Positions 4,102 through 62,700 of a DNA stretch of 64,000 nucleotides are shown here, one piece after another. Position 1 is the first letter of the stretch; every line of letters begins with the position of its first letter. Below the pieces are notes generated by a model. It saw nothing but the letters and a program-made list of their open reading frames with translations. It did not search any database and was not told the origin of the DNA. The stretch is from Patescibacteria group bacterium (GTDB taxonomy: Bacteria > Patescibacteriota > Patescibacteriia > UBA2196): positions 14,734 through 78,733 of the forward strand of contig JAQTPI010000004.1 in NCBI GenBank assembly GCA_028748975.1, given 5' to 3'. The translations under genes and the position numbers were made by a program.

Positions 4102-7100
4102 ATGAAAATTAAAAGATATAAAATTTTATTGGTCGGAGTGATTTTAATTTTAATCGCCGGTGGTTTTTTTGTCATCCAAAAATCCGGCCAGGAAGCCGAA
4201 GCGCAGGGGCTCTTGCCGCTTAGCCCGCCGACCAATGTGCAAAAAAATTATGCCACCACCGCCCTGATTGATTGGAGTTGGAGCGCGCCAGTATCCGGCG
4301 GCCTGCCGATTGATTATTACAAAGTCTACACTGGCAGCGGTGGCTTCATCTCCGATGTCACCGGCACCAACTATACGCAACCCGGGCTTAATCCCAGCAC
4401 GCAATATTCCATTAAGGTTATGAGCTGTAAATATGGCAGTGACCCGACCTGCACCGGCCCATATTATGCCAGCACTTTTTCCAGCACGGCTTATGGCTAT
4501 ACCAAAGCCAACACTCCCAGTAATCTGACTGTTTCTCCATCCGCGGATTGCTTGGCTGATAATTACGGAGCCAGCGGGGAGTGCCAATTGACTTGGAGCT
4601 GGAGCGCGAATGACAACTCGGCGGGCACAAATTATTATTATTCAACAGATGAAGGTGCGGGCGCGTGGACAACCAGTTTGAGCTATACAGAAACAATCAG
4701 TTTTGACAGTTGCCGTACGCATACCGCGGGCAGCACGGCGCATACTTTTTACGTGAAAGCCAAGAATGGAGAAGGTGAAGAAACTGACACGACAAGTTTA
4801 AGCAAGACGGAATATAATGTGTGTGATTGGTTGGAAGATTTTGTTTTAAGTCATATTCCTCCTTATGCCAACCAATTTCGCGCTACCTGGACTCCCTCTC
4901 CAAATATTGAGATTCGAGCAGCATTAAATGGCGGTAATTTTCAGACAATAACAAACAATGGAACATTTATGGCTGGACCAGATGGGGTTTGGGCAAATGC
5001 AAGAAATTGGGTGGATTTTCAATGGCATTATGTTGGTGAAGCGTGGCCTCCTAATATAATAATAACCAAAGAAATAAAAGCCCTTCTTCCTCAAGTCGCT
5101 TCAGTTTCTTGTTCCGGCGCTACCACAAATTCTTTGACAGTGACAGCAGAGGGTGGGGGACTGGGTTTTCCAAACCTTTTTACTCTTCTAAGTGGAGTAA
5201 AAATGTCAAAGGCCGTGGTCTATGGAACAGATGATGATGTTGGGACGTATAGTAGTGGCTACCCAACATCAATACCTTTGACTTGGACGGTTTCCAATCT
5301 TTCTCCCAACACTTCCTATTCTTTTAAATTTATAAGCTATAACCAAGAAGGCACGGCAAACTGGGAAACAGAAGCTTTAACTGCCGGGAGCTGTCGGACG
5401 GCCGCGGCGGTTTATCCTCAATGCGGAACAACAACATATAGCCCGGCGCCGCCAACTTGGACCCACAGCAGCGTGCTGGTTTCCATCCCCTGCACGGAAG
5501 AGGGCGGGCCTGGCTGCTCCAAATCAACCTACACCTTGAGCCGTTCAAGCAATGGCAGCGGCACCATTGTTATTAGTGATATTGTCGGCAACACGACCGA
5601 GTGCCCCTACAACGTCACCAACATTGATAAAATTGCGCCAACAGTGAATTCTTTTACAGTTGACGATCATGCTTCTGATTTTACCAGCTCTGACACTGGG
5701 CCGGTGATTGACTGGACCGTGGCTGATTCTGGCGGGTCAGGACTGAAACAGGTGGAGGTTTGGCGCAAAACCGCTGGCGGAGATTGGATACTGATTTATA
5801 CCACCACTGATGTTTCCGGCAATGGCCCGACCAGCGGTTCTTTTACTGACTCGGTTGATTGTCTGCCTTCCCACCAACCCTACACCTATGGCATTCATGT
5901 TTTGGATAATGCCAATAATATCGGTTATGAAAATAATCCCATCGCGGTGACCCTTTCAAATTGCGGCGGGACGCCAACTTGCGGCAGTAATGACAATGGC
6001 GAAGGCGATTTGTTGCAGGCCACCTGCGAGAACGCGCCGATTTTTGGCAAATGGAATTATGCTTCTGACGACGCGACAGGCATGTGCTGGAAAAAAGACC
6101 GCGACGACCCCTATCTTTGCTGCGGTGACGACTCGGGTGAAAATTGGGATTATTTCCGCGAATTTTTTGGCAGTTTTGGCAGTTATTCCACCGATGAGAA
6201 TGACAATGCTTGCTGTAATAATGCTTCTGACTGCGTCTTTAATCACACCTGCTATGATGGTGATGCGAATGGCGCCAGTTTTGAATCCGCTTCCTGCATG
6301 AGCGGCCAAAGATATTGCGGCGGACCCAATGTTTATACTTGGGAAACCGACGCTGATTACAATTTTGCCGTCTGCCAATGTTTGCAAGGTTCTGCCGACC
6401 GCTGGAATGAAAGCGGCTGGTTTGGCGGCAACCAAATTAATTGGAGCATTGGTGGTTATTCGCAAGACCGTTGCTGCGGCGATGATGCTGGAGAAGTTTT
6501 TGCCAACGGTGTTTGTACCACTGGCGCGGCTCTGCCGGATTTGGTGGTGGAAAGCGTGACGCCGCCGACAGGCCTGATTTGCATGGGCAGAAGCGCCACA
6601 TTTTCCGCCGTGATTAAAAACACCGGCAATGCTTCAACCGGCGCGGGGTTTGCCAACCAGATTACTTTGGTGGACACGGGCTCGTGCTTGGCCAATTCTA
6701 CCGCGCTCACGGCGAGCGAAAGCAAAAATATTTCCTGCGCCATTACGCCGAGCGCGGCTGGAATTAAAACCGTGATGTCGCAGGCAGATTATGACGATGC
6801 CATTTCCGAATCCAATGAAGACAATAATGGCCGAGACACCACCGCCACAATTTTTGCCACGCCAAACACGCCCACGGGTTTGACAGCCACCGGCATTGGC
6901 GCCACGGACATCACTTGGGACTGGGACAACATGAGCGGCGCCACTTCTTATATAATTTTATTAAACGGCATTCCGGTTGACACGGTAACCAGCAGCCAAT
7001 ACATTGCCCAGGATCTTTGGGGCGCGGCTGATTATACCATCACAGTTCAAAGTTACAACGGTTGTGGTGTCAGCAGCGGAGCGCAACACACAGTCACCAG

Positions 7101-10308: not shown

Positions 10309-10313
10309 CGATA

Positions 10314-10348
10314 GCATTAAAGCATTAAAGCATTAAAGCATTAAAGCA
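10314..10348. repeat. Tandem octamer microsatellite (GCATTAAA/CATTAAAG) x4, immediately after the stop codon.
   Basis: Direct reading of the sequence. The same octamer family recurs at other gene ends (14044, 20505) and, as the reverse complement TTTTAATG, just upstream of start codons (12100, 20575, 23590, 37040). Confidence 0.85.
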
Positions 10349-10374
10349 ATAGTTTTTGTAATAAAATTTTTTAG

Positions 10375-10414
10375 GCGGTTTTTGGCTAATCTTAGCCAAA
10401 AACCGCCTTTTTCG
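10375..10414 (+). terminator. Rho-independent terminator of the giant gene.
   Basis: Perfect hairpin ggcggtttttggctaa-tc-ttagccaaaaaccgcc, followed by ttttt. Confidence 0.85.
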
Positions 10415-12039: not shown

Positions 12040-12132
12040 TTTCTGTTCCCCTTATTACTTATTACTTATTACTTATTACTAGTTACTTATTACCCGCTTC
12101 TAATGTTTTTATGCTTTAATGTTTTAATGTTT
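12040..12132. repeat. Microsatellite block: (TTATTAC)n / TTATTACTAGTTACTTATTAC, then (TTTTAATG)n running into the annotated start region.
   Basis: Direct reading. These are reverse complements of the GTAATAAG / CATTAAAG families seen after other genes. Confidence 0.8.
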
Positions 12133-12153
12133 TTATGGTATAATAAAATAGAT

Positions 12154-14043
12154 ATGCACCACAGAAAAATCTTACTGACTTTTCTGTTTTTAGCCGTTCT
12201 GATGATTGGCGGATTTTTGGCGTCAACAAAAGCGGCCTGGGCCGGCACTGGTAAAATCGTGGGCGATAAATATAACCTGCCCTATCCGCGCATCGGCGTG
12301 TTTCTTTGGGCCGGCACCACGGAATGGTTCGCGCAAAAAGGAATTGATTTGGTGGCGGCGAGCCCGGGCGTGGACATTGAGGGAGTAAAAAAATTAAGTC
12401 CGAAAGTTTTAGTCAGCCACACCAATGACATCAATAAATTATGCGGCGACGATCGGCCGGAAGAATGGTATTATCATGACGCCGATGGCAATCGTGTTTC
12501 CTACTGGGGCGGCTATCTTTGTAATTTTAATTATCAGCCTTTCCGTGAATTCGTCGGCAATACTTTTGCCGGCATGGTGGGCGGCGCCGATTTCGTCACC
12601 ACCGATGGGCTGTGGACCATGCCTGGCCGGGCAGAAATTTTACAGACGGTTCGAAGCCGGATTGGCGACACGCCTTTTATGGTCAATGGCAATGGCGGCT
12701 ATGAACAAGATAAAAGCATGTATGAATATTACAATGGCAGTTTTTTGGAAGATGGCGGCAATTTCAACAGCAATTGGGATTCAGCTTTTGGCACCTATGA
12801 AGACATGATGAATTATGCCCGCCAGCCGCACATCATCGTCATTGACGGCACCCCGACCAACTGGAGCTTGCCCAACATGACTGATGATTTCAAATTGATG
12901 CGCTTTGGCCTTGGCACGACGCTTCTTGGCGACGGCTATTTTTCTTACGAAGTCGGAATTAATAATCATTTTTATATCGGCTATTTTGACGAGTATGATT
13001 TGGATTTGGGCTATCCCAAAGGCGCGCCGCAGTGCATCAAAAACGAAGGCCGCTGGGGTTATGAAAAACGCTGCGTTTTCGTGAGGTTTTTTGACAAGGG
13101 CGTTTCCATTTTGAATGTCAAAGGCAAATCCGAATCAATCAGTGATAATGATTTAAAAAGCTTGCCCGGTTATGCTGGCCCGTATTATCGCTTTCGGGGC
13201 GGGCAGGACACGGTTTGGAATAATGGACAGCTTTTTACCAGTTTGAATTTGGACGGCCAGAAAGAATTAACCAACGAGCAGTACGAGCATTATAAAATTT
13301 GGGGTGACGCCATCATTCTTTTAAAAGAACCGAAAGTGGTGGTGGCGGACATTATTATTGATGACCACCCGCTGGTCACCTCGCCGGCTAACAAACAAAC
13401 AGAACTGAAAGGTGCGGCCTGGGAAATTGTCAAACCCGGTAAAGGCGATAAGTTTTGGCGGCTTTATAGTTCGGAATTGGGAGAAAGTCCGGCATCTTAC
13501 GGCGCGATTTCCGCCAGTAAAAACGCGGAAGCAATTTTTCGGCCAAAGATTGGCGTGCCGGGCCGCTACCGCGTCTCTGAATGGCATGGCAATGATTATG
13601 CCGAGAGTGAAACAACCAGCGCCATTTATGAAATAAATTATAAAGGCGGAGTTAAAGTTGAATCAATTAACCAATCCCAAAGTTATGGCCAATGGAATTT
13701 TTTAGGCGAGTTTTATTTCACAGAGGGAGACAGCGGCTATGTCAAATTGAATAATAATGGCCAAGGAGTTTTGGTAGCGGACGCGGTGAAATTTGAATAT
13801 CAAGACGCGGTGTTGATGGCTGACTTTAACTGTGACGGGCAGATTAATATCGCTGATTTCGGAATTTTATTGTCGCACTGGGGGCAAAAAGAAAATAACG
13901 GTTCGCTGAAAAAATACAAACATCCCCTGTGTCAGGAAGCAAAAAGTTTGGATTTAGTGTTAGATAATACAATTAACATCAAAGATTTGGGCGCCCTGCT
14001 TTCCTGCTGGGGCAATCCGGATAATGAGACGTGTTATCAGTAA
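12154..14043 (+). CDS. Secreted protein (about 629 aa) with a C-terminal pair of dockerin-like Ca-binding repeats.
   Basis: The likely true start is ATG 12154 (MHHRKILLTFLFLAVLMIGG); the track ORF 12103 begins inside the TTTTAATG repeats. The C-terminus carries DFNCDGQINIADFGILLSHWG ... NTINIKDLGALLSCWG, which resembles dockerin type-I duplicated repeats. Confidence 0.65.
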   Translation: MHHRKILLTFLFLAVLMIGGFLASTKAAWAGTGKIVGDKYNLPYPRIGVFLWAGTTEWFAQKGIDLVAASPGVDIEGVKKLSPKVLVSHTNDINKLCGDDRPEEWYYHDADGNRVSYWGGYLCNFNYQPFREFVGNTFAGMVGGADFVTTDGLWTMPGRAEILQTVRSRIGDTPFMVNGNGGYEQDKSMYEYYNGSFLEDGGNFNSNWDSAFGTYEDMMNYARQPHIIVIDGTPTNWSLPNMTDDFKLMRFGLGTTLLGDGYFSYEVGINNHFYIGYFDEYDLDLGYPKGAPQCIKNEGRWGYEKRCVFVRFFDKGVSILNVKGKSESISDNDLKSLPGYAGPYYRFRGGQDTVWNNGQLFTSLNLDGQKELTNEQYEHYKIWGDAIILLKEPKVVVADIIIDDHPLVTSPANKQTELKGAAWEIVKPGKGDKFWRLYSSELGESPASYGAISASKNAEAIFRPKIGVPGRYRVSEWHGNDYAESETTSAIYEINYKGGVKVESINQSQSYGQWNFLGEFYFTEGDSGYVKLNNNGQGVLVADAVKFEYQDAVLMADFNCDGQINIADFGILLSHWGQKENNGSLKKYKHPLCQEAKSLDLVLDNTINIKDLGALLSCWGNPDNETCYQ

Positions 14044-14118
14044 GCATTAAAGCAATAAAGCATTAAAGCAATAAAGCAATAAAGCAATAAAGCAATAAAG
14101 CAATAAAGCAATAAAGCA
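14044..14118. repeat. Tandem octamer microsatellite (CAATAAAG/CATTAAAG) x9.
   Basis: Direct reading between the stop at 14043 and the ATG at 14129. Confidence 0.9.
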
Positions 14119-14128
14119 AACAGAAACC

Positions 14129-16621: not shown

Positions 16622-18731
<2,110 letters not shown>

Positions 18732-18760: not shown

Positions 18761-18808
18761 TATTAATATCCACATCAGTCACGATCGTGACTGATGTGGA
18801 TATTAATA
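18761..18808. promoter_or_regulatory. 48-bp perfect palindrome centred on TCACGATCGTGA, overlapping or just upstream of the PaaX-like gene start; candidate operator or cruciform site.
   Basis: Base-by-base check shows 24/24 complementary arms (tattaatatccacatcagtcacga|tcgtgactgatgtggatattaata). Confidence 0.6.
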
Positions 18809-18816
18809 AAAACCAT

Positions 18817-19347
18817 ATGCCAAGTAAATTATCAAAATTTTCTAAGATTTGTTTAGAGTCTTTTATTGATCTAAGTAATTTTGTAATCAGTAGTCCAATC
18901 AGTTATATTAATATTCGCAAGTTTCTTTATGGCGGCGCACCCGATGATTTTTATAAGACGTTTTATAATTTAGAAAAAGGTCATTATTTAACTACCAAAA
19001 AAAGAAATGGTCAGAAATTTTATTATTTAACTAAAAAAGGTAAAAAAATTACAACAGAGTTGCTAGTAAAATATAAGATCAAAAAACAAAAATGGGATGG
19101 CCAGTGGCGTATCTTGATTTTTGATATTCCCGAAAATAAGCGTCGTTTCCGAGATAATATGCGCCAAAGTTTATTGAATCTTGGTTTTATCAAACTCCAA
19201 AAGAGCGTCTGGATTACTCCCTATGATATTATTGATGATTTATATGAAATTATCCCTGGTTTTCGGGAAGGCGATTGGTTTGAATATGTTGAAGCCAAGC
19301 ATATTAGCAGTAAAAAGAAATTGAAAGAATATTTTAGATTGAAGTGA
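18817..19347 (+). CDS. PaaX-like protein: N-terminal winged-helix domain plus a C-terminal Cas2/VapD-like fold region.
   Basis: KTFYNLEKGHYLTTKKRNGQKFYYLTKKGKK resembles a wHTH. WRILIFDIPENKRRFRDNMRQSLLNLGFIKLQKSVWI resembles the Cas2/PaaX_C core. The track start at 18787 lies inside the palindrome, and ATG 18817 (MPSKLSK) is more plausible. Confidence 0.5.
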   Translation: MPSKLSKFSKICLESFIDLSNFVISSPISYINIRKFLYGGAPDDFYKTFYNLEKGHYLTTKKRNGQKFYYLTKKGKKITTELLVKYKIKKQKWDGQWRILIFDIPENKRRFRDNMRQSLLNLGFIKLQKSVWITPYDIIDDLYEIIPGFREGDWFEYVEAKHISSKKKLKEYFRLK

Positions 19348-19367
19348 TTTTTATTTAATAAAATTAT

Positions 19368-19407
19368 TACTCGTACAATTCTCACGATCGTGAGAATTGT
19401 ACGAGTA
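19368..19407. promoter_or_regulatory. 40-bp perfect palindrome with the same 12-bp core TCACGATCGTGA, 21 nt after the PaaX-like stop.
   Basis: 20/20 complementary arms (attactcgtacaattctcacga|tcgtgagaattgtacgagtaat). Confidence 0.6.
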
Positions 19408-19540
19408 CGAGTTGGAGGACATGGTTTTTAATAGTAATTATTAATTTTAAAAAAATGATAAATAAAAAACGGTTAATTGAAAATGATGTTGAAATTCAAT
19501 TAACCGTTTATTGAGAATCACCAAAAAATTGGTGATGAGA

Positions 19541-19612
19541 GTCGGCGGAGGGATTCGAACCCCCGAACACGGATTTGCAATCCGTGTCCTTAAACCACTC
19601 GGACACGCCGAC
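19541..19612 (-). tRNA. tRNA-Cys (GCA).
   Basis: The reverse complement folds as a cloverleaf: acceptor GTCGGCG, D-arm TGTCCGAGTGGTTTAAGGACA, anticodon stem ACGGA/TCCGT with loop TTGCAAA, and T-arm GGGGGTTCGAATCCC. Confidence 0.8.
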
Positions 19613-19623
19613 AACTCTGTCAG

Positions 19624-19698
19624 TACGCCCGGAAGGATTCGAACCTTCAACCCTTCCCCACAAGAGCGGGGTGCTCTATCCAATTGAGCTACGGGCGC
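19624..19698 (-). tRNA. tRNA with a canonical D- and T-arm but an irregular anticodon stem; the anticodon is probably CTT (Lys).
   Basis: Acceptor GCGCCCG/CGGGCGT, D-arm TAGCTCAATTGGATAGAGC and T-arm GAAGGTTCGAATCCTTC are canonical. The anticodon region CCCCG-CTCTTGT-GGGGA pairs only 3-4 bp, so the anticodon assignment is tentative. Confidence 0.5.
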
Positions 19699-19731
19699 GC
19701 TGCCATGAAATGAATTCGTCACGGCTAGCTT

Positions 19732-19808
19732 TGGCGCCACCTACGGGTTTTGAACCCGTATTCCCCGGATCAATAATCCGAAGTCTTAACCAATTAGATG
19801 AAAGCGGC
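19732..19808 (-). tRNA. tRNA-like gene with an encoded CCA and an atypical anticodon loop (TTATTGA, giving anticodon ATT); possibly a pseudo-tRNA or a non-canonical decoder.
   Basis: Acceptor GCCGCTT/AGGTGGC (two G-U pairs), a weak D-stem, anticodon stem TCGGA/TCCGG, T-arm ACGGGTTCAAAACCCGT, and a 3' GCCA end. A34 with G37 is abnormal. Confidence 0.35.
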
Positions 19809-19827
19809 TCTGCTGAAATAATTTTGT

Positions 19828-19898
19828 AGCGGGCGAGGGACTCGGACCCCAACCTTCGGTGTATCAGACCGAAACTCTGCCAATTGAGCTACGCCCGC
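19828..19898 (-). tRNA. tRNA-Ile (GAT).
   Basis: Acceptor GCGGGCG/CGCCCGC, D-arm TAGCTCAATTGGCAGAGT, anticodon stem TCGGT/ACCGA with loop CTGATAC. The T-arm is somewhat irregular. Confidence 0.7.
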
Positions 19899-19903
19899 AG
19901 TTT

Positions 19904-20054
19904 TGGTGGAGCCGGCAGGATTCGAACCTGCGACCTTTCAAACTCGTAGAATTGGCCAATTTTTCCCTCACGCGCGCTTGGGAAAATTTGGGCAATTTTT
20001 ACCCTCTTTTTTAAGGAGAGAAGTTTGAAAACTCTCCCAACTGAGCTACGGCCC
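19904..20054 (-). tRNA. tRNA with Ala-type identity elements (G3:U70, D-arm TAGCTCAGTTGGGAGAG, encoded CCA), interrupted by an about 85-nt insertion between the two halves of the anticodon stem; intron-containing or disrupted.
   Basis: 5' half GGGGCCGTAGCTCAGTTGGGAGAGTTTTCAAAC, and 3' half GTTTGAAAGGTCGCAGGTTCGAATCCTGCCGGCTCCACCA. The halves TTCAAAC/GTTTGAA pair across an insert that has its own hairpins (ttttccc...gggaaaa; the AATTGGCCAATT palindrome). Confidence 0.55.
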
Positions 20055-20208
20055 CGATTCAACACGAGAACAAAATCGTAAAATAAAGTGACTTTTTTAT
20101 TTTAACAAGGTCTAAAAAACTTGTCAAATGTGGATAAGTAATATAAAATATAATAAGTAACTACCAATAAATAATAAGGGAAAAAATGAATAATCCCAAT
20201 GTTATTTT

Positions 20209-20502
20209 ATGCTAACACAAGAAGAAGTAAAACATATTGCGGATTTGGCGCGACTGGAACTGGTGCCGGAAGAGATTGAAAAATACCAAACACAGTTGGG
20301 GCGGATTTTGGATTATATAAATAAATTGGCGGAAGCCAAAACAGAAGGGGTGTCGACGGCGGATGGGGGAACGACGGATTTGGAAAACGTGTGGAGGACA
20401 GATGAAAAATCAGAAATTGGAAATCAGAAATCAGGTACGGATTTAATAAAAATGGCAGGAGAGGTGGAAGGAGGACAGGTGAAGGTGAAGAGTGTGTTTT
20501 AA
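20209..20502 (+). CDS. gatC: Asp/Glu-tRNA amidotransferase subunit C.
   Basis: MLTQEEVKHIADLARLELVPEEIEKYQTQLGRILDYINKL matches the GatC N-terminal pattern, and the gene sits immediately upstream of gatA. Confidence 0.85.
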   Translation: MLTQEEVKHIADLARLELVPEEIEKYQTQLGRILDYINKLAEAKTEGVSTADGGTTDLENVWRTDEKSEIGNQKSGTDLIKMAGEVEGGQVKVKSVF

Positions 20503-20611
20503 ACCATGAAAGCATGAAAACATAAAAGCATTAAAGCAAAAATAGTAATTAAAAATAAAGGTTAGTTGTTTTTGTTTTCATGTTTTAATGCTCTAATATT
20601 TTAATGTTGGT

Positions 20612-22113: not shown

Positions 22114-22186
22114 ACGAGATCCCTCGGCTCCCCGCCTAAATTTTTGCCCCGCAAAAATTTAGGCGGGTCGCTCGGGATAAACTAAA
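22114..22186. repeat. Family-A palindromic element (acgagatccctcg ... cgctcgggataaacta) with the internal hairpin ccgcctaaatttttgc/cccgcaaaaatttaggcgg.
   Basis: Its ends match the consensus of the other copies. Confidence 0.8.
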
Positions 22187-28970: not shown

Positions 28971-29117
28971 AGAAAAAGGTAATAAGTAACTAGTAATAAG
29001 TAATAAGGAAAACAAAACCCAACGAGAATTACAAAAGCCGCCCCGACATTCGTCGGGGCGGCTTATTATTAAATTTTATTAGCATTATTCGCCCATCATT
29101 CGCAGTATTTGTAAATT

Positions 29118-44352: not shown

Positions 44353-44946
44353 AATTAGAACCAAGAACTAAGGAGCAACTTCTAATAATTTGAAGAACGG
44401 GCAAACGCCTATTTTTTTTAGTTTCAGATAATTGGGCCAGTAGGAATCTGGCATAAAACAGCATAGTTTAAGGGCGTTTAAAAAATCAAAAAGAATTAAA
44501 GGAAAAAATAGTAAAAAATTTAATCTAGGGATGTGAAAAAACATTAAATAAATACCAAAAAATTCAAAATAAATACCAAAAAATTCAAAAATAATTAAAA
44601 TTTAATGCCAGAAATCTTCAATTTTACCCAATTTTTAATGGTTTTAAGGCTGAAATTTGCTATTTTAAATAAGAGATGAACGGGGAATGAGGCAGTGAAT
44701 TTTGCTGGAATCAGGCCTGTTTTTATGTAAATTTTCTATTGAAAAGCAGAAATTTTCTATAAGGCCACCTAGCGTTGTTTTTTAGTCCCTGTTTTTGTGG
44801 ATAAATTGGCAAAGGTTAAAAAGAAAAAACTGGGAATCAAAGAAAGGCAGTGTATAACTTCAAAAAAATTTTAAAGTTAATAAACTTTTATGAGCAAAGA
44901 AGCGCGCATATCGGCCCTTTTTAAGCTTATTGGAGACAAATTTTTT

Positions 44947-44974
44947 GAAAGCCGATAAACGTTTATCGGCTTTC
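44947..44974. promoter_or_regulatory. 28-bp perfect palindrome gaaagccgataaacgtttatcggctttc, immediately upstream of the -35 element of the giant-gene promoter.
   Basis: Direct reading. A possible operator, or the terminator of upstream transcription. Confidence 0.5.
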
Positions 44975-44984
44975 AAAATTTTAT

Positions 44985-52612: not shown

Positions 52613-52641
52613 TAAGTAATAAGGAAAATAAAAAACAAAAA

Positions 52642-52664
52642 AACGAGCAAGACTCGTTTTTTTG
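52642..52664 (+). terminator. Rho-independent terminator.
   Basis: acgag-caaga-ctcgt followed by ttttttt. Confidence 0.8.
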
Positions 52665-52743
52665 TTTGAAGATATCTATCCTTTGTTACCCTGTTACTCT
52701 GTTACTCTGTTACTTTGTTATTATGTTATTTTTTATTTATTAG

Positions 52744-53137: not shown

Positions 53138-53176
53138 ACGCCGTTGTTTTATTGCAACAAAACAACGGCGTTTTTG
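53138..53176 (+). terminator. Strong rho-independent terminator (13-bp stem).
   Basis: acgccgttgtttt-attgcaac-aaaacaacggcgt followed by ttttt. Confidence 0.75.
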
Positions 53177-53741: not shown

Positions 53742-56700
53742 ATGCTTCGTCGTCAAAATTACCATGCTCAAAAGACAGAAAACCACGCTCAAGAAAAGAG
53801 TCGTGGTTTTATTTCTCTCTCGGAGGCGGCGAAGCTCTGTACTTACTCACAAGAATACCTGTCGCTTTTGGCCAGACGGGGGGAACTTAAAGCGCAAAAA
53901 ATAGGACGCAATTGGTTTACCAAAACCGACTGGTTGAAAAAATATATTGAGGACCACCCAGCGGATTTGAACGGCAATATCAAAGGGCGCCTGCTGGAAG
54001 AAGAAAAATTAAAAAAAATAATACATAAAAAAAGATTTAAGAATTTAAATGTCTTAGGAGAAGTTGGAGCGACAACCAGGGTGATGAAGAAAAAGATGGC
54101 AGGAGCGAGAACGAAAGTTTTGTTGGCAACAATGTTGATGGTATTATTGGTGGGTGTGGTTTTGATCAAACCAAACTATGTGAAAGATTTCGCGACGATG
54201 GAAATTAAACTGGCGCAGATAGGAACTAATGAATTCAAAAGAATTTTTTGGAATGAAAACGCGGCGAAGTTTGAGGCGCCAGAACAAGAAACGGCAAAAC
54301 AGACGATGGAAAAAATTGGGGGAAAAAAAATTGTGGCGGGGGCGAAAATCAGCGAAGTTTGGAAAAATCTGATCAGCCAGTTTAATCAGGTAAAAAATTT
54401 AAATCTCAGCATCGCGAAGAATTTTGACAAGGCTGAGCAAGAAATTTATTTGGCGCACTATAATTGGCAGAAAACCGGAGAAAGAATTTTTAGTTGGTTG
54501 GAGAAGAAAAATTTTGCCATCAATTTGGGTGATTTTAAAATGTTTGGGAAATCTGGGGAGATCAGAGACTGGGGAATAGTTGGAGCAATGAAGAAAATTT
54601 TAGCTAGTGCAAATAAAATTGTTGGCGAAGCTGGTGGAAGCGCTACCGAACTGGCCAGTAACATTGGTGATAAGATTGGCGAGTGGCTTTCATCTTTTCA
54701 AAAAACAGAATGGGATTCACGGTTATTAATTCAGCTGGCCAAAAGAAAAAGCGAAACAACACAAATTGTTTATGAGGGTGATTGGATCAATCAAATAGGC
54801 CAAGGAGAAGCAGGCCAGGCGGGGGCTAGTGGAAAGCCAGGAGCGACTGGCGCGACTGGTAAAATCGGCAGTCAAGGACCGCGCGGTGAAAAAGGTGAAA
54901 AAGGCGAAACCGGACCACAAGGATTACAAGGATTACAGGGATTACAAGGAATAGCTGGACCAGCTGGCGCGAGCGGTGGAACCAGTATTACCAATGTTTA
55001 CAATGTGGGTGTGCCAGGAACAACTGCCCATGACGGCGCGGGCTCTTCCTTCGCCGCTAAATATATTGGCGCGGGCGAACTCTCGGTTTCCGGCAACACC
55101 AGTTTGAATGGCAGTTTAACTGTTCAGGGTGGAACCAGTTTTAATAGCGCGGTAAATATTGCCGGGATTTTGAATGGCGGTAACGCGGTCTTTAGCGGAG
55201 TTACGATGAACACACTTAATGCCACGACCACAAATATTGATTTTGCCAGAATTGTTGATGGCAGAATAACCACACTTAACGCCACCACCACGAACATTGA
55301 CACGCTCCAAGTTTTTGGCAACGCCACCACGACTGGCGTGCAAAGCATTGTGGGCCAACTGAAAGTCGCCACTTCCACTTTGGATGAGTATTATAAATTC
55401 GGCGTGGGCGGACCGGTTTACATCGCGGGCAGTTTATATCACGAGGGCAATGCCACGACTACGGGCACAGGAGTTTTTTCTAATTCTTTGGCTGTGGCAA
55501 CCACCACTCATCCTTACACTCTAAACATCGGAGGCACAGGATATTTTAGCGACGGACTGATGATTGGCGGTTATGCCACCACTTCCAATTTGACAGTTCA
55601 GGGTAATGCCACCACCACCGGATCACATTACATTGGCGGAGATTTAACAGTGGCAAGAGCTTCTGCTTTTCTTAGTGGCGCTTCTTTCAATTCCATCACT
55701 ACGACCGACACTGCTTACTTTGGCGGTAATTTAACCGTGGTTGGTGCCACTGATTTACAAGATAATGTTTTTGATTCACTGGGTGATTTTACGATCGCGG
55801 ATAATTTGATGGTCAGCGGTAATGCCACCACCACCGGATCACATTACATTGGCGGAGATTTAACAGTGGCAAGAGCTTCTGCTTTTCTTAGTGGCGCTTC
55901 TTTTAATTCCATCACGACGACCGACACTGCCTACATCAGTGGCAGAAGTTTTTTGATGGGCAACGTCGGCATCGGCACAACCGCGCCGACTTCCACACTC
56001 GCGGTTTATGGAAATTTCAATGTGCAGAATGCCAGCAATGGCACCAGTAATTTATATGTTAATTCAACAAGTGGCAATATCGGCATTGGCACAACAGGAC
56101 CGCTACAAAAACTGGACGTGAATGGCAATCTAGCCTTTGGCGGCAGCCGTGCTTTTGGATTATTTGGAACCATATTAGATTTTGGGAGAGGCAGTTCTTA
56201 TTTTACAGGATTTAATCTCGGAGTTGGAGCGTCAAGCGGTTTATTTATTAATTCAAACGGCAACGTCGGCATTGGAATGACGAACCCGGTTTATAAACTG
56301 GAAGTCAATGGCACCGCTTCCACTTCGGCTTTGTATGTTGGCACGAACGCGACGACCACCGGAGTAGCTTATGTTGGTTTAGCTTTGGCCGTGGCCACCA
56401 CCACTTCTGATGATTTTTCTTTTCAAATCGGTGCTAAGCCATCAATTTTTCAACACGGCGTTTCCATTTTGGGTTATGCCACTACTTCTAATTTGACAGT
56501 GCAGGGTAACGCCACCACCACTGGCACACAATATTTTGGCGGCGACATCAACATGGCTGGCGCAATGAATCAGGCTGGCGGTAGCGCGGCTTTGGCCACC
56601 ACCACGGTGGTGGGAAGTTTTACGGTACAGGATGCCGATGGCAACTCCAGATTTTTAGTCAATAATTTAACCGGCAAGGTGGGTATTGGTACGAGCGGAC

Positions 56701-59700
56701 CGGATGGCAGTTTGGAAGTTCTAAATGCTGATAGCGCGCAATTACGTCTAAGCCAAGCCAATGAAGTTTTTTACGCTGATTTCCAGGTGGATAATACCGG
56801 CGATTTGCTTTTGAACATGAGCGACAACACTGGCCAAGGGCAATTAATTTTGGCCAACGAAGACACCATCGCGATTGGCGGCGTGGCGGGACAAATTTAC
56901 AATGCCATCGCCAATGATGCCACAAGCATGGGGCATGGCTTGAATACAGACACAGATTTATACATTGGTGGCAAATTGGAAGTTGATGACAATGTTTTTT
57001 TTGATGGCAACGTAACAATTGCCGGCGACCAGACCGTGGTGGGCACAACGGCTTATGAAAGCAATGTGGACATGCAGAATAATTTAATTTTGAATGTAGG
57101 CCATGCCAATACTGATTTCACTACTGGCGGCGGACTTAATTTGGCCGGTGATTTGGCCGTCAATTCCGGTAATCTTACTTCCTCTGGCAATTTGACTTTG
57201 AATCCGACCGGCACTTTGAATTTGGGTGGGGCAAATACGACAGTGATTTCTACACCTAACACGGTGGCAACTTACAACGTCAATGGCACTGGATTGACCG
57301 CGGTTAATATCGCGGTAGCCAACGTTAACCCGGCCATTTTGAATTTTGGCACTTCGGCCGCGGGGAACGACATTAACATCGGTGGTTCGACAGCTACGGT
57401 GGATTTGGAAAATGGCACTGTGTATGTTATTGGTGGCAACATAGGAATTAATACCACCGCGCCGACTTCCACCCTGCAAACCATTGGCAATTTTTCCATT
57501 GCCACCACTTCCGCTCTCGGTTTTAACAAGCGCGAGGTTTTCAGCGTCAATAGCACTAATCATTTTGCCACCACGACCGTGAAAGATTATTTCCAGGTGG
57601 TGCAGGCAAACGAGGCGACAAGTTTGTTTGTTGATAAAGGAGGAAATGTCGGCATCGGGACAACTGCGCCGAATAATATTTTAGATGTAAATGGAACAGC
57701 CAACATTCCAATTATACGGCCCGGCTCGGTCACGTCTTATGTCGGAGGAGTTATTAATCTTAGCACCTTAAGTTTATCAGACACAGCGGCTGCCGAAGCA
57801 AGTTTAAATTGGAGAACTGGCACTTGGACCACTTATCGCCAAAATATGACGATAACTCCTTACGGGGCTTATGACGAAGGCGGGGCTGGAAAAATTTCTT
57901 TTATAGGCAACGTCGGCATCGCCACCACCAACCCGACCGCATTTTTGGAAATTTCTACCACGACTAATGATTGGGTAGGAGCAGACCGCGCGCGTCCTTT
58001 AATGCGCGTGGCAACTAAAACCACTGAAGCTTTTTACATCGCGGCGAGCGGAAATGTGGGGGTGGGGACGACCAATCCTTTAGGATTACTTCAAGTTGGA
58101 GACAATAATGCAACTCTTGGTAATAAATACGCTCTTTTTTCCAACAATGTCGGAGGAAATAATCCATCAAGTGTTGTTGGACTTGCTATTGGGTGGAATA
58201 AATCCAATGGGCAAGGTGAATCTAATATTATTTTTAACACAACTGGAGGGGGTACAGCACCAGGACTTGCGATCGGCGACTTTAATGGCGCAACTTACAA
58301 AGAAGATATGCGCATAGATCAAAATGGCAACGTCGGCATCGCCACCACTAATCCGACCGCATTTTTGGAAATTTCTACCACGACTAATGATTGGATAGGA
58401 GCAGACCGCGCGCGTCCTTTAATGCGCGTGGCGACAAAAACTACCGAAGCTTTCTACATCGCGGCATCGGGTGCGGTTGGAATTGGCACCACGGATCCAA
58501 GCTGGACTGGTTTTGATGTTAATAAATCTGGTTTCTATTTTCATAACGGTGCCACCGCCTTTATCTATAACAATGGCGTTAATACCGGCTTTAATAGTGG
58601 CACCACCCCAGGTTCAAAAGTATCAATTGCGGGAAATTTATCAGTGGGAAGCACTTTTTATTCTGTTGCCGCGCCAACTAATGGAGCAATTATTGAAGGC
58701 AATGTCGGCGTTGGGACGACCGCGCCCTCTGCCTTACTTCACGCTTCTTCCACCACGGAACAATTACGATTATCCAATGGCAATGTCGCTTCCACTAACT
58801 TCACATCTTTTAAAGTTCTCTCTGCCGGTGATTTAATCATTGACCCGCAGGGAACAGCGACTTCCACCGTGATTGGCAGTAATCTGCAAGTGGAAGGCAA
58901 CGCCAGCACGACTGGCGCATTGTATGTTGGTGGGCATTTTAATGTGGTTGGCATCGCGGCTTTTACCGGCGGCGCGAGTTTCAATTCCATCACTACCACG
59001 GATACGGCCTATATTGGCGGAAAAAGTTATTTTGGCGGTAACGTTGGCATTGGCGCGACCGCGCCACTGGCCAAATTGGATGTGCGCGGCGACGTTTACA
59101 TTGGCGCGGGCGCGGAAATTTACACCAATGGCGGCTATGAATCTGGTGGAGTGACCACTGTTAGCACTCTGCAAAACAATATGTATGTTTGGCAGGGCGG
59201 CACGGGCAATGTTACGCCTTCAGTGGAAACGACCATTGTCCACACCGGCACCAATTCGCAAAAAATAGTAGTGACTGATGACGGCACTTCTCTTTCTGAT
59301 GTCCGCGCGGCTACCGCTTCGTCCAATTACAACGCGGTCGTGGGCGATGTTTTCACTTACAGTTTTTGGGTTTATTCCAGCGTGGCTATCACCAACGCGC
59401 AAGTGGCTTTTGCCAGTATTGGGCAGAGCGGCTGGGGAACAGCGGTAAGTTTTAGCGTGCCAACCATCAATACTTGGACTAAAATTTCCGGCATGGTGAC
59501 TTGCAATGCGACCGTGGCCAATAATGGCACCAACATTCAGGCAAAAATCGGCGACACTTTAAGCGGCGGAACCGGCACGGTATATTTTGATGATTTTTCA
59601 ATTTATCGGACGGGCTTGGCTTTGGTCAATGCCAACGCGGCCGTGGCGGGCGGACAACAAAATTCTCCGGTTGTGAGATGGTCGGGTTATGGTTGGAAAA

Positions 59701-62700
59701 CAGATGCCACGGCTGGGAGCCAAGCAGTGGATTTCCGAAGTTATGTGGTGCCGGTGCAGGGAGCGGCCGCGCCAACCGGTTATCTGACTTTTGAATCTGC
59801 CATCAATGGCGCGACTTATGGCAATACCATGAATTTCACTTCTGGTGGAAATTTGGGCATCGGCACCACTGCGCCAACTTCCACCTTGGCAGTTTATGGA
59901 AATTTCAATGTGCAGAATGCCAGCAATGGTACTAGTAATTTATATGTTAATCCAACAAGCGGTAATGTTGGCATTGGGACGACGGGGCCGACACAAAAGT
60001 TAGATGTTAACGGTAATATGAGAGTTGGGAGCGGAATAATTTATGGCCCAGCCACGACCGAATATCTTTCTTTTGATAGCACAAATGGTTCTTACCTTGT
60101 TTCTAATGGAACTTATGTTAGAGCAGCGCCAGCTTCTGATTTAGTATTTGTTAATAATAATAACGAGAGCATGAGAATAAAACTAGGTGGTAATGTTGGT
60201 ATTGGCACTAATGCACCAACTGCTTTATTTGAAATCGCCACCACCACAAATGACTGGCCGGCCGGTGTTCGTCCTTTAATGCGAGTGGCCACGAAGACGA
60301 TCGAAGCGTTGTATGTTTCCGCGGCGGGAAATGTGGGGATTGGGACGGCGACGCCGGAGCAAAAGTTGGATGTAGCCGGTAGCACTCGTTTGAGTTCTTA
60401 TTTACAATTAAGAGATTTTGACGCTGGCAGTTGGGATGGCGTAACTCTTGGTTCAACTATTATTTCTAGAGATTATGCCACGGTGTTTTGGAACGGCGGA
60501 GTGATAGTTGGTGGATATGCCAACGACGCCACACCAGCCGCTTACAGCGCTGGTGGCGCGTTTTTGTCGCAAGGCCCGACCGCTTTGGCCGTGAATTCTG
60601 GCAATGTCGGTATTGGAATAACAAACCCGGTCGGGCAATTTCAAGTTTCCACCACCACCATGTTTGCTTCAGCTTCTGGCACAGAACCGAGAGTGGGTAT
60701 TGGCACTTCCGCGCCTTCTGTGCCTTTGCATGTTTCTAAAACAGGGCTGGCAGCCGATGGCAATAATTGGGTTGGTTATTTTTTAACTCCAAATGTTGTC
60801 ACTGATGCCCACACAGTAAATCTTTTGCTTGGAAAGACAACTGCCACCGGAGCTTCCGCAGCTTTAAGTTACAAGTATGACACAACTTCCGGCGATGAGG
60901 GTTTTGGCATCGCTTTGTATGGCGACGCTTTAGGCAGCGGTTTTTTCCAAAGAAAGGGCGGCAATGTGGGAATTGGGACATTAACACCGGGCGCAGAATT
61001 AGTAGTGGTTTCCGATACTTACGGAGCGCCCAAATTTATGGTTTCCTCATCAACCACTGTAACCACGCCGAGTTTGTATGTGGCCAATACCGGCAACGTC
61101 GGCATCGGAAATACCAACCCAACCCAAAAATTAGAGGTGACCGGCAATCTTATGATTCCAAATGGAAACGCTTATTATTCTAAAGATAGTTCGGGAAACG
61201 CTATACCATTAATTCAGTTAAATGGTTCTAATAATTTGCGCATGCTGGCTGGCTACAATACCCAAATAGAAATTTATAATACCGCGCAGACTTACGCTTT
61301 GATGGCAATAAAAAATAACGGCAATGTCGGCATTGGTACCACTAATCCGACTGCCTTATTCGAAGTTTCTACCACGACCGCGCATTCCACCATTTCTAAT
61401 CGACCAATGATGCGGGTAGCCACGGGTACGACAGAAGCATTTTTTGTTGATAGATTTGGCAATGTGGGGATTGGACAGATTAACCCGCAATACAAACTTG
61501 ATGTCGCTGGCAATTTGAATTTGAACGCCACTTCCACCATTTACATGAACTCGTTGCCGGCGTTTAACGCTTCTTCTACCAGTCTTTCTGTCTCGGCTGG
61601 CACGCAGGCGGGCAATGCTTTGCTTGATAGCGGAATACGTAATGTTTTTGTGGGCTATCAGGCCGGCTATTCGGCGACCACTTCTGATTATAATGTTGGC
61701 GTCGGTTATTTGGCATTAAAGAATACCAACAGATCTGGCGGTGGCGACCAAGGCGGCGACAGAAATGTGGCCGTGGGGGATACTTCCATGGATGCCAACA
61801 CTTATGGCGGATATAACACAGCGGTGGGTTTTGATTCTTTAGGCGCTCTTATAAGCGGTAATCAGAATACGGTGGTTGGCAATTCCGCGTTGTATCAAAA
61901 TACCACTGGTTCTCTTAATGTCGCCATGGGTTATGTGGCTGGTTATCTAAACAAAGGCACTGGCAATGTTTTTTTGGGCACAGGCAGTGGCACGACCGAA
62001 CAGTTTGATACTTCAAACTATTCAGTGGCCATTGGCTATTACGCCAAAACTTTTGGCAGTAATCAGCTTTCCATTGATAATGCTTCCACCACCGCGCCAT
62101 TGATTTTTGGTGATTTTTCCACGCGCCGAGTTGGCTTAGGCACGACCGCGCCAGTGGCGATGTTTGAAATTTCAACTACGACTGATTGGGTGGCGGGAGT
62201 TATGCCTTTGATGCGCGTGGCAACTAAAACCACCGAAGCTTTCTATATCGCGGCGACTGGCAATGTAGGAGTGGGGACGACCGCGCCTGATGCCAAACTT
62301 TCAATCTTGAATGGCTCAGGATATCTTTTGTCTTCCAAAGACACGGCCGGTACCACTCGTTTTGCTATTAATGCTTTGCATTCTAATCCTTATTACTATG
62401 ACATAGCGTCCACTAATTATGATTTGCGAATATCTTCTTATTTGACTGGCGGCACTGGCGGCAATATCCAGTTTCAAACCAACAGCGTGGCAGGCGCGGT
62501 AGAGAGAATGCGCATTAATCCATATGGTAATGTCGGTATCGCTACCACCAACCCGACTGCGTTTTTGGAAATTTCTACCACGACAACCGACTGGGTTGCG
62601 GGCGTGCGTCCTTTGATGCGCGTGGCCACGAAGACGACGGAGGCGCTGTATGTTTCCACGGCGGGGAATTTGGGAATAGGATCAACAAACCCATCTTTCA

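Follow-up and report, generated by a model that had tools for sequence, protein, structure and literature searches.

The closest described relative of the gene examined here is paaX, whose product, PaaX (Escherichia coli, Pseudomonas; 8a39, 3l09), is a phenylacetyl-CoA-responsive regulator of 316 aa composed of a winged helix, a Cas2-like central domain and a C-terminal effector-binding domain. In E. coli, PaaX recognizes the 39-bp site TGATTC(N27)GAATCA and represses its own promoter by steric hindrance of RNA polymerase (PMC9493321). The present analysis concerns a truncated gene of this type, here called mini-PaaX, and two long perfect palindromes, P1 and P2, that stand before and after it on contig JAQTPI010000004.1 of a Patescibacteria (Candidate Phyla Radiation, CPR) metagenome-assembled genome (MAG); the stretch of 64,000 nucleotides (64 kb) that was analysed is referred to below as the window. 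Like PaaX, the encoded protein has a winged helix followed by a Cas2-like domain, but it comprises 176 aa and lacks the effector-binding domain; unlike paaX, its gene has one site on each side and no paa genes nearby, the neighbours being ligA, a tRNA cluster and gatCA. Comparison of this locus with its many homologues makes it probable that P1 and P2 are two cognate operators of about 40 bp for the regulator encoded between them.

Two other well-known arrangements resemble this layout. In lambda, the operators OR and OL flank cI-rex at a distance of 2.4 kb from each other; both are tripartite, with 17-bp sites, and a lytic promoter is under the control of each. There, too, a repressor gene is bracketed by its own operators, which can be bridged by protein contacts that make autoregulation tighter, and this may serve as a functional analogy for P2, although the fold of CI is unrelated to that of mini-PaaX. 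The genes of the repetitive extragenic palindrome (REP)-associated tyrosine transposases (RAYTs) and of the IS200/IS605 proteins likewise span 150-200 codons and are flanked by hairpin-forming palindromes, which their products recognize, in a unit of about 650-700 bp. These products are HUH/Y1 nucleases whose substrates are single-stranded hairpins, and a genome with REPs has tens to hundreds of them at scattered places. An open-literature search found no work linking PaaX-like proteins of Patescibacteria with flanking palindromes.

Two perfect palindromes with a shared core

P1 consists of TATTAATATCCACATCAGTCACGA followed directly by TCGTGACTGATGTGGATATTAATA (24 + 24 nt, 100% complementary, spacer 0), and P2 of TACTCGTACAATTCTCACGA followed by TCGTGAGAATTGTACGAGTA (20 + 20 nt, 100% complementary), beginning 21 nt past the stop codon; both had been recognized as perfect in the preliminary description (coordinates in Table 1). 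They are the two longest palindromes of the window, and each is centred on the 12-mer TCACGATCGTGA, of which the 64 kb hold two copies with one mismatch allowed. By chance 0.07 copies would be expected, and two copies were reached in 0 of 100 shuffles; folding z-scores were -10.5 for P1 and -6.7 for P2. The palindromes are therefore far beyond chance, in agreement with the earlier remark that such lengths are rare.

The arms differ around this common centre, as had also been noted. Apart from the 12-bp core, P1 and P2 share ACA at positions -13 to -11 from the dyad, within the outer box, and their overall identity is 50%. A scan of the window for the half-site pattern ACA-N4-TCACGA matched the four half-sites of P1 and P2 only, and a wider search for the core or half-site returned eight one-mismatch matches, near chance expectation, and no further copies in the 64 kb. 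The preliminary description had suggested looking for other palindromes centred on the core; there are none in the window beyond these two. Rfam gave no family above threshold for either palindrome.

P1 had been described as overlapping the start of the gene. The overlap holds for the frame proposed by the open reading frame (ORF) finder alone, which begins at GTG 18787, within P1. Since close homologues and an identical protein in the database (P0001) begin MPSKLSK, translation almost certainly starts at ATG 18817. With this start, P1 extends from -56 to -9 relative to the ATG and stops 9 nt short of it (8 intervening bases).

A truncated PaaX-type protein

The protein had been called PaaX-like, with a winged helix and a Cas2 fold, and profile and structure comparisons bear this out. 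Pfam PaaX_M (PF20803, 'PaaX central Cas2-like domain') matched residues 91-167 with 80.6 bits (E=9.2e-23; cut-off 24), and the N-terminal half gave weak, sub-threshold winged-helix matches (PadR, DUF3116). There was no Pfam match to PaaX_C, and the protein stops at residue 176. The PaaX equivalog TIGR02277 scored 48.4 bits against a cut-off of 264.55; the Cas2 model TIGR01573 scored 25.7 bits against 24.5, over 35 residues only (98-132, model positions 3-38). An AlphaFold model (predicted local distance difference test, pLDDT, 86; predicted template modelling score, pTM, 0.77) places a predicted winged helix at about 30-71, with a recognition helix at 45-54 and a wing (beta-hairpin) at 58-71, followed by a long linker helix at 73-90 and a Cas2-like ferredoxin-fold domain (beta-alpha-beta-beta-alpha-beta) at 97-172. 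The best PDB match to this model in Foldseek was E. coli PaaX (8a39; 178 columns aligned), ahead of the PaaX-like 3l09 and Rv0674 and then of Cas2 and small winged-helix proteins, the winged-helix matches including PadR, MarR, F-93 and TubR. The Cas2-like domain, used as a single sequence, gave no useful match in a PDB search.

In the family alignment the motif W-x3-IFDIPE is invariant, the fully conserved columns being G75, D94, W97, I101, F102, D103, P105, Q128, S130 and P135. The Asp that closes beta1 in Cas2 corresponds to D103, within FDIPE; the equivalent stretch of E. coli PaaX reads LLLSE, so the Asp has been kept here and lost in canonical PaaX. The ferredoxin-like fold and a beta1 motif ending in Asp are thus common to mini-PaaX and Cas2. 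Against Cas2, mini-PaaX has a winged-helix fusion, no CRISPR array was found in the window, there is no conserved cas1, and PaaX_M is by far the better match. Public records nevertheless label the family 'CRISPR-associated endonuclease Cas2', 'phenylacetic acid degradation operon negative regulatory protein' or 'hypothetical', and the NCBI record of the window protein is named Cas2. That name is probably a misannotation, and the family annotations as a whole are inconsistent and probably wrong.

Paired palindromes across the family

A family profile was built from 30 homologues and searched against proteins clustered at 50% identity, yielding 6,674 clusters at E<=1e-3 and 4,916 at E<=1e-10. 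At least 593 family loci lie in species-representative genomes; nearly all of these belong to Patescibacteria among the matches listed, sometimes with two or more per genome. PF20803 was present in all of 103 homologues and PF08223, the PaaX C-terminal domain, in one of them. Several MAGs that carry the family are labelled Gammaproteobacteria or Syntrophaceae, yet their loci look patescibacterial.

Flanking DNA was analysed at 85 non-redundant loci, nearly all of them patescibacterial; 80 came from genomes, one was that of the window and the others came from metagenomes. A metagenome scan for close relatives contributed four loci, and the locus of one homologue (P0005) was not located. A site was called where at least 15 of 20 pairs were symmetric around a 0- or 2-nt centre within 150 nt of the gene, a threshold above the 99th percentile of shuffled flanks. 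By this measure a palindrome of about 40 bp was present upstream at 46/85 loci, downstream at 54/85, on both sides at 34/85 and on either side at 66/85. The upstream site is centred a median of 36 nt from the ATG and the downstream site 32 nt from the stop codon, and sites were about 17 times denser around family genes than elsewhere (119 sites no more than 200 nt from a family gene, 28 in the remaining 315 kb). In close homologues the distance from upstream site to ATG is kept, and the CG..CG core and the ATG are invariant in the alignment. On this comparative evidence, the placement of the gene between two matching palindromes is a property of the whole family.

A few loci depart from this simple layout. 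A third copy of the locus-specific palindrome is present in L053 (~4970-5010), L057 (~1924-1965) and L080 (~760-800). The extra copy of L053 is found 2 kb downstream, between genes that converge, so that a miaA-like gene and a 233-aa ORF would be enclosed by the pair together with the family gene; in L057 two tandem copies stand upstream. These third copies hint at further targets or at larger bracketed units. L062 differs from the other loci in that its two flanks have in common a direct repeat of 51 nt (CGCCATCGTTCCCGAGTCAGGGCAGACC...), which is not palindromic and may have arisen by duplication of part of another feature.

The two sites of a locus evolve in concert

Sites that flank the same gene resemble each other far more closely than sites of different loci. 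An exact word of at least 12 nt was common to both flanks at 53/85 loci, against 3.3% for mismatched loci, and the median identity of the 40-bp sites was 83% within a locus and 38% between loci. By zone, within-locus identity was 98% in the core (±1-4 from the dyad), 77% in the spacer (±5-9), 87% in the outer boxes (±10-18) and 59% at the edge; the corresponding values between loci were 60, 30, 35 and 33%. As judged from these alignments, evolution of the paired sites is concerted within each locus.

One case is L001, a syntenic orthologue of the window locus (ligA, gene, tRNAs, gatC) whose protein is 72% identical and which has both palindromes. In L001, TCGCGG replaces TCACGA in all four half-sites, and the outer arms of P2 (ACTCGTACA...TGTACGAGT) are unchanged in comparison with the window; the surrounding intergenic DNA is unalignable. 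The L001 core recurs with other arms and in another genomic context in L089, and core type follows protein clades across the family.

Site anatomy and the hairpin alternative

The symmetry of the sites is divided into zones. The arms are asymmetric in 0-7% of cases at ±1-4, in 20-33% at ±5-9 and in 4-14% at ±10-18, and asymmetry rises again beyond ±19. The core follows the consensus RCGR/YCGY (the stroke marking the dyad), with a subclass GCTA/TAGC, and C occupies position -3 in 96% of half-sites; the outer boxes lie about 28 bp apart, centre to centre. Two symmetric zones about one helical turn apart point to a dimeric protein on one face of the duplex, not to a hairpin stem.

Were the palindromes instead to act as nucleic-acid hairpins, P1 would terminate ligA and P2 would terminate or stabilize the mini-PaaX mRNA, the core being coincidental or a preferred loop. 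The predicted folds are very stable (P1 -34, P2 about -30 kcal/mol), P2 is terminator-like by score on the minus strand, and further long hairpins stand where genes end elsewhere in this genome (at 10373, 22131, 29035 and 52633). A run of at least five T follows 13 of 54 downstream sites in the family, as a terminator would have it, yet none follows the 46 upstream sites (13/100 overall), nor either P1 or P2 on the + strand. The sites also accompany the family gene irrespective of how its neighbours are oriented, and the core occurs in no other hairpin of the window. A loose zone at ±5-9 and a near-invariant C at -3 make no sense for a stem, and neither does a within-locus core identity of 98% suit a coincidental loop. 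Among the positions that break Watson-Crick pairing, 77 were G:T, 54 A:C and 173 other, with no G:U wobble excess on the coding strand. We consider the hairpin explanation very unlikely; the pattern of the sites, as read from the alignments, fits protein contacts and not RNA hairpins. Chance and a generic terminator were ruled out as sources of the palindromes by the unique core, the few T-runs, the bipartite symmetry and the indifference to neighbour orientation.

Putative operators and a model for their use

The preliminary description had proposed the cores as plausible operators, one at either end of the gene, for autoregulation by the encoded protein. The layout of the family, the concerted evolution of paired sites, the bipartite symmetry and a span of about 40 bp, close to the 39 bp of the likewise symmetric PaaX operator, all argue for this proposal, with the refinement that the recognized unit would be the whole site, core plus outer boxes, and not the 12-bp core only. 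The protein may form a homodimer through its Cas2-like domain and bind one dimer per palindrome, its two winged helices resting on the outer boxes (±10-18) and the C/G at ±3 being read by the wings or by a conserved basic helix of the Cas2-like domain.

For P1, a role in autorepression is probable: it would lie over the likely core promoter, so that its occupancy would block RNA polymerase, as PaaX does at its own promoter, Px. The right arm of P1 holds a candidate -10 element (Table 1), and -10-like boxes stand at the matching place in close homologues, e.g. TATAAT in L091. If this element is used, the mRNA would have a very short leader or none, and the mini-PaaX transcript is probably leaderless. 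P2 most likely serves one of two roles. It may cooperate with P1 by looping the gene of about 600 bp (a 603-bp interval), or it may be a protein roadblock that shields the AT-rich gene from neighbouring transcription, entering or leaving. Helical phasing of the two sites was not significant, and looping is therefore neither supported nor excluded.

Several observations weigh against the operator interpretation, which rests wholly on the comparison of sequences. P1 and P2 are among the least similar pairs in the family and are unusually diverged, and a consensus promoter scan called no promoter in P1. Simple occlusion of a promoter leaves unexplained why downstream sites should be at least as frequent as upstream ones (54/85 against 46/85). 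The spacer, poorly symmetric as it is, remains 77% identical within a locus, which suggests that homogenization by recombination or duplication has played some part besides selection for binding. The geometry of binding would also differ from that of PaaX, since the outer boxes are about 28 bp apart in the family and about 33 bp in E. coli PaaX, and since the family sites are palindromic over their full length with a conserved central RCGR/YCGY core, the latter unreported for canonical PaaX operators. Finally, the 64 kb hold no other target site, and a regulator of itself alone needs a further rationale. We nonetheless regard the operator interpretation as the probable one.

Possible mobility, toxin or defence function

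A unit of palindrome, gene and palindrome could also be a small mobile or selfish cassette whose protein binds both ends in the manner of a transposase or RAYT, the Cas2-like domain acting as a nuclease or strand transferase, or recruiting a host recombinase at the CGRYCG centre. The preliminary description had allowed for such a cassette, and patchy presence and varied contexts lend it weak, indirect support. Close homologues (63-78% identical) lie in unrelated neighbourhoods, no neighbouring or partner gene, cas1 included, is conserved across 87 loci, and three related genomes (L095, L096 and L097) have no family gene after ligA. The gene is lower in GC than its flanks at 93% of loci, by 6% on average, and several genomes carry at least two paralogues. 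A size of about 650 bp and a hairpin-gene-hairpin layout recall IS200, D103 is invariant where E. coli PaaX has LLLSE, and both ends share non-symmetric spacer bases. In L053 a second copy 2 kb away brackets two further genes.

Other features expected of a cassette were not found. Identity among the paralogues of a single genome reaches only 43-74%, so that none is a recent copy; the ends have no consistent relative orientation (10 direct, 12 inverted and 12 undecidable), and no target-site duplication is visible at them. The alignment has no HUH motif, no catalytic-Tyr signature (Y136 is replaced in some members), no His pair and no invariant His, and searches of mini-PaaX in Pfam and NCBIfam returned no transposase family. 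With two copies of the core in 64 kb, divergent paralogues, randomly oriented ends and a symmetry of duplex type, mini-PaaX differs from the RAYT and IS200 systems in each of these respects. Phage carriage is not indicated either: there were no relatives among IMG/VR viral contigs, and PHROGs gave non-significant matches only. The window and L001 hold the gene at the same chromosomal site with proteins 72% identical, which argues for long vertical residence. Although the gene is absent from the three ligA relatives, their neighbourhoods are also rearranged around it, leaving no precise empty site or scar, and no empty site with a single palindrome was seen. No evidence of active mobility was found, and we judge a mobile cassette unlikely.

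A different biological purpose, compatible with operator binding, would be that of a fused, self-regulated element of the toxin/antitoxin or defence kind, in which a Cas2/VapD-like nuclease is held in check and the winged helix autorepresses through the flanking operators. Cas2 and VapD share a fold (a profile search gave a weak match to VapD 3ui3, E=0.19), the family has kept without exception the beta1 Asp that E. coli PaaX lost, and a lone, AT-rich, patchily distributed gene with multiple paralogues is what many addiction and defence genes look like. PADLOC, however, matched Cas2 models only, through the beta1-alpha1 motif, and no defence model beyond this partial motif. The neighbours are housekeeping genes and not defence islands, no partner gene is conserved, and the same domain is a plain dimerization module in PaaX. 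A toxin or defence function has no positive support beyond the retained Asp, and we hold it to be highly improbable. A bolder proposal is a new class of autonomous element in Patescibacteria, whose Cas2-derived domain, with the Cas2-type Asp retained, would act on its own palindromes by cleaving them, resolving hairpins or recombining at the CGRYCG centre. Such a cassette would be mobile or addictive, and might be related to the ancestor that gave rise to CRISPR Cas2. This we think quite unlikely.

Genomic surroundings in the window

The features of the locus and its neighbours are listed in Table 1. The mini-PaaX gene has a GC content of 30% against 43% in its flanks, and the window contains no other family member. 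Downstream, gatC and gatA lie beyond the tRNA cluster, for two members of which ARAGORN made odd anticodon calls ('ct' and Asn-att). The tmRNA-like (transfer-messenger RNA-like) match that adjoins this cluster scored 32 against 47 bits, below the gathering score. Upstream, the small GIY-YIG-type ORF between a large gene and ligA has a GC content of 30-33% and a weak match to group I intron endonucleases, and is missing from the otherwise syntenic L001 (gap 1823->1860); it is probably a separate mobile insertion. Small GIY-YIG ORFs also adjoin family genes at three other loci.

Table 1. Positions of the palindromes, the mini-PaaX gene and neighbouring features in the window
Feature	Position	Strand	Remarks
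P1, perfect 48-bp palindrome	18761..18808	.	Dyad 18784/18785; putative upstream operator
P1 left outer box TATCCACAT (-18 to -10)	18767..18775	.	Mirror 18794-18802; from the symmetry profile
P1 core TCACGA/TCGTGA	18779..18790	.	Fits family core consensus RCGR/YCGY
TATTAAT, candidate -10 element	18801..18807	+	Right arm of P1, 9 nt before ATG; read from sequence
mini-PaaX gene, 176 aa	18817..19347	+	Winged helix and Cas2-like domain, without PaaX C-terminal domain
P2, perfect 40-bp palindrome	19368..19407	.	Dyad 19387/19388; putative downstream operator
P2 left outer box CTCGTACAA (-18 to -10)	19370..19378	.	Mirror 19397-19405
P2 core TCACGA/TCGTGA	19382..19393	.	Same as P1 core
GIY-YIG-type ORF, 103 aa	16292-16603	+	Between upstream large gene and ligA
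ligA	16683-18731	+	Upstream neighbour
Hairpin (inverted repeat I4/I10)	19464-19512		Downstream of P2
Four tRNA genes	19539-19898	-	Downstream; confirmed by Rfam
tmRNA-like match	19904-20055	-	Adjoins the tRNA cluster
Giant ORF, 2,068 aa	4102-10308
Giant ORF, 2,210 aa	45306-51938		Many copies of a 29-nt repeat

Other long perfect or near-perfect intergenic palindromes or hairpins, with arms of 13-18 nt, were found at 2137-2168, 10373-10408, 22131-22167, 29035-29064, 44943-44978, 52633-52667 and 53138-53171. Some are terminator-like and none has the core of P1 and P2; the one at 44943-44978 lies within a gap of about 950 bp without a convincing ORF. Tandem arrays of an 8-nt unit (AAGCATTA / AAGCAATA) in 4-10 copies occur at 10313-10348, 14042-14119, 20494-20547 and, in complementary form, 12051-12137; all are intergenic and adjoin gene starts or ends. 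The 29-nt repeat of the larger of the two giant ORFs encodes GNVGIGTT and is found again at 55959-61486.

Implications for Patescibacteria

Patescibacteria have tiny genomes with few recognizable regulators, and almost no pair of transcription factor and operator has been characterized in them. What appears to be new here, as the comparison of loci suggests, is that a shortened PaaX-type regulator has a pair of operators bracketing its gene, and that this recurs across a family of very large size. Recognizing it would correct the widespread misannotation of its members as 'Cas2' or 'phenylacetic acid degradation repressor'. There is also a mechanistic question in the layout, namely why a repressor gene should have an operator at its 3' end. 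With two probable recognition sites beside each gene, the specificity of thousands of variants could be read from sequence, providing a data set for the recognition code of winged-helix/Cas2-like proteins and a possible source of orthogonal repressor-operator pairs. Because the family comprises 4,916 clusters, often with several paralogues per genome, mini-PaaX proteins may be among the main DNA-binding protein families of Patescibacteria.

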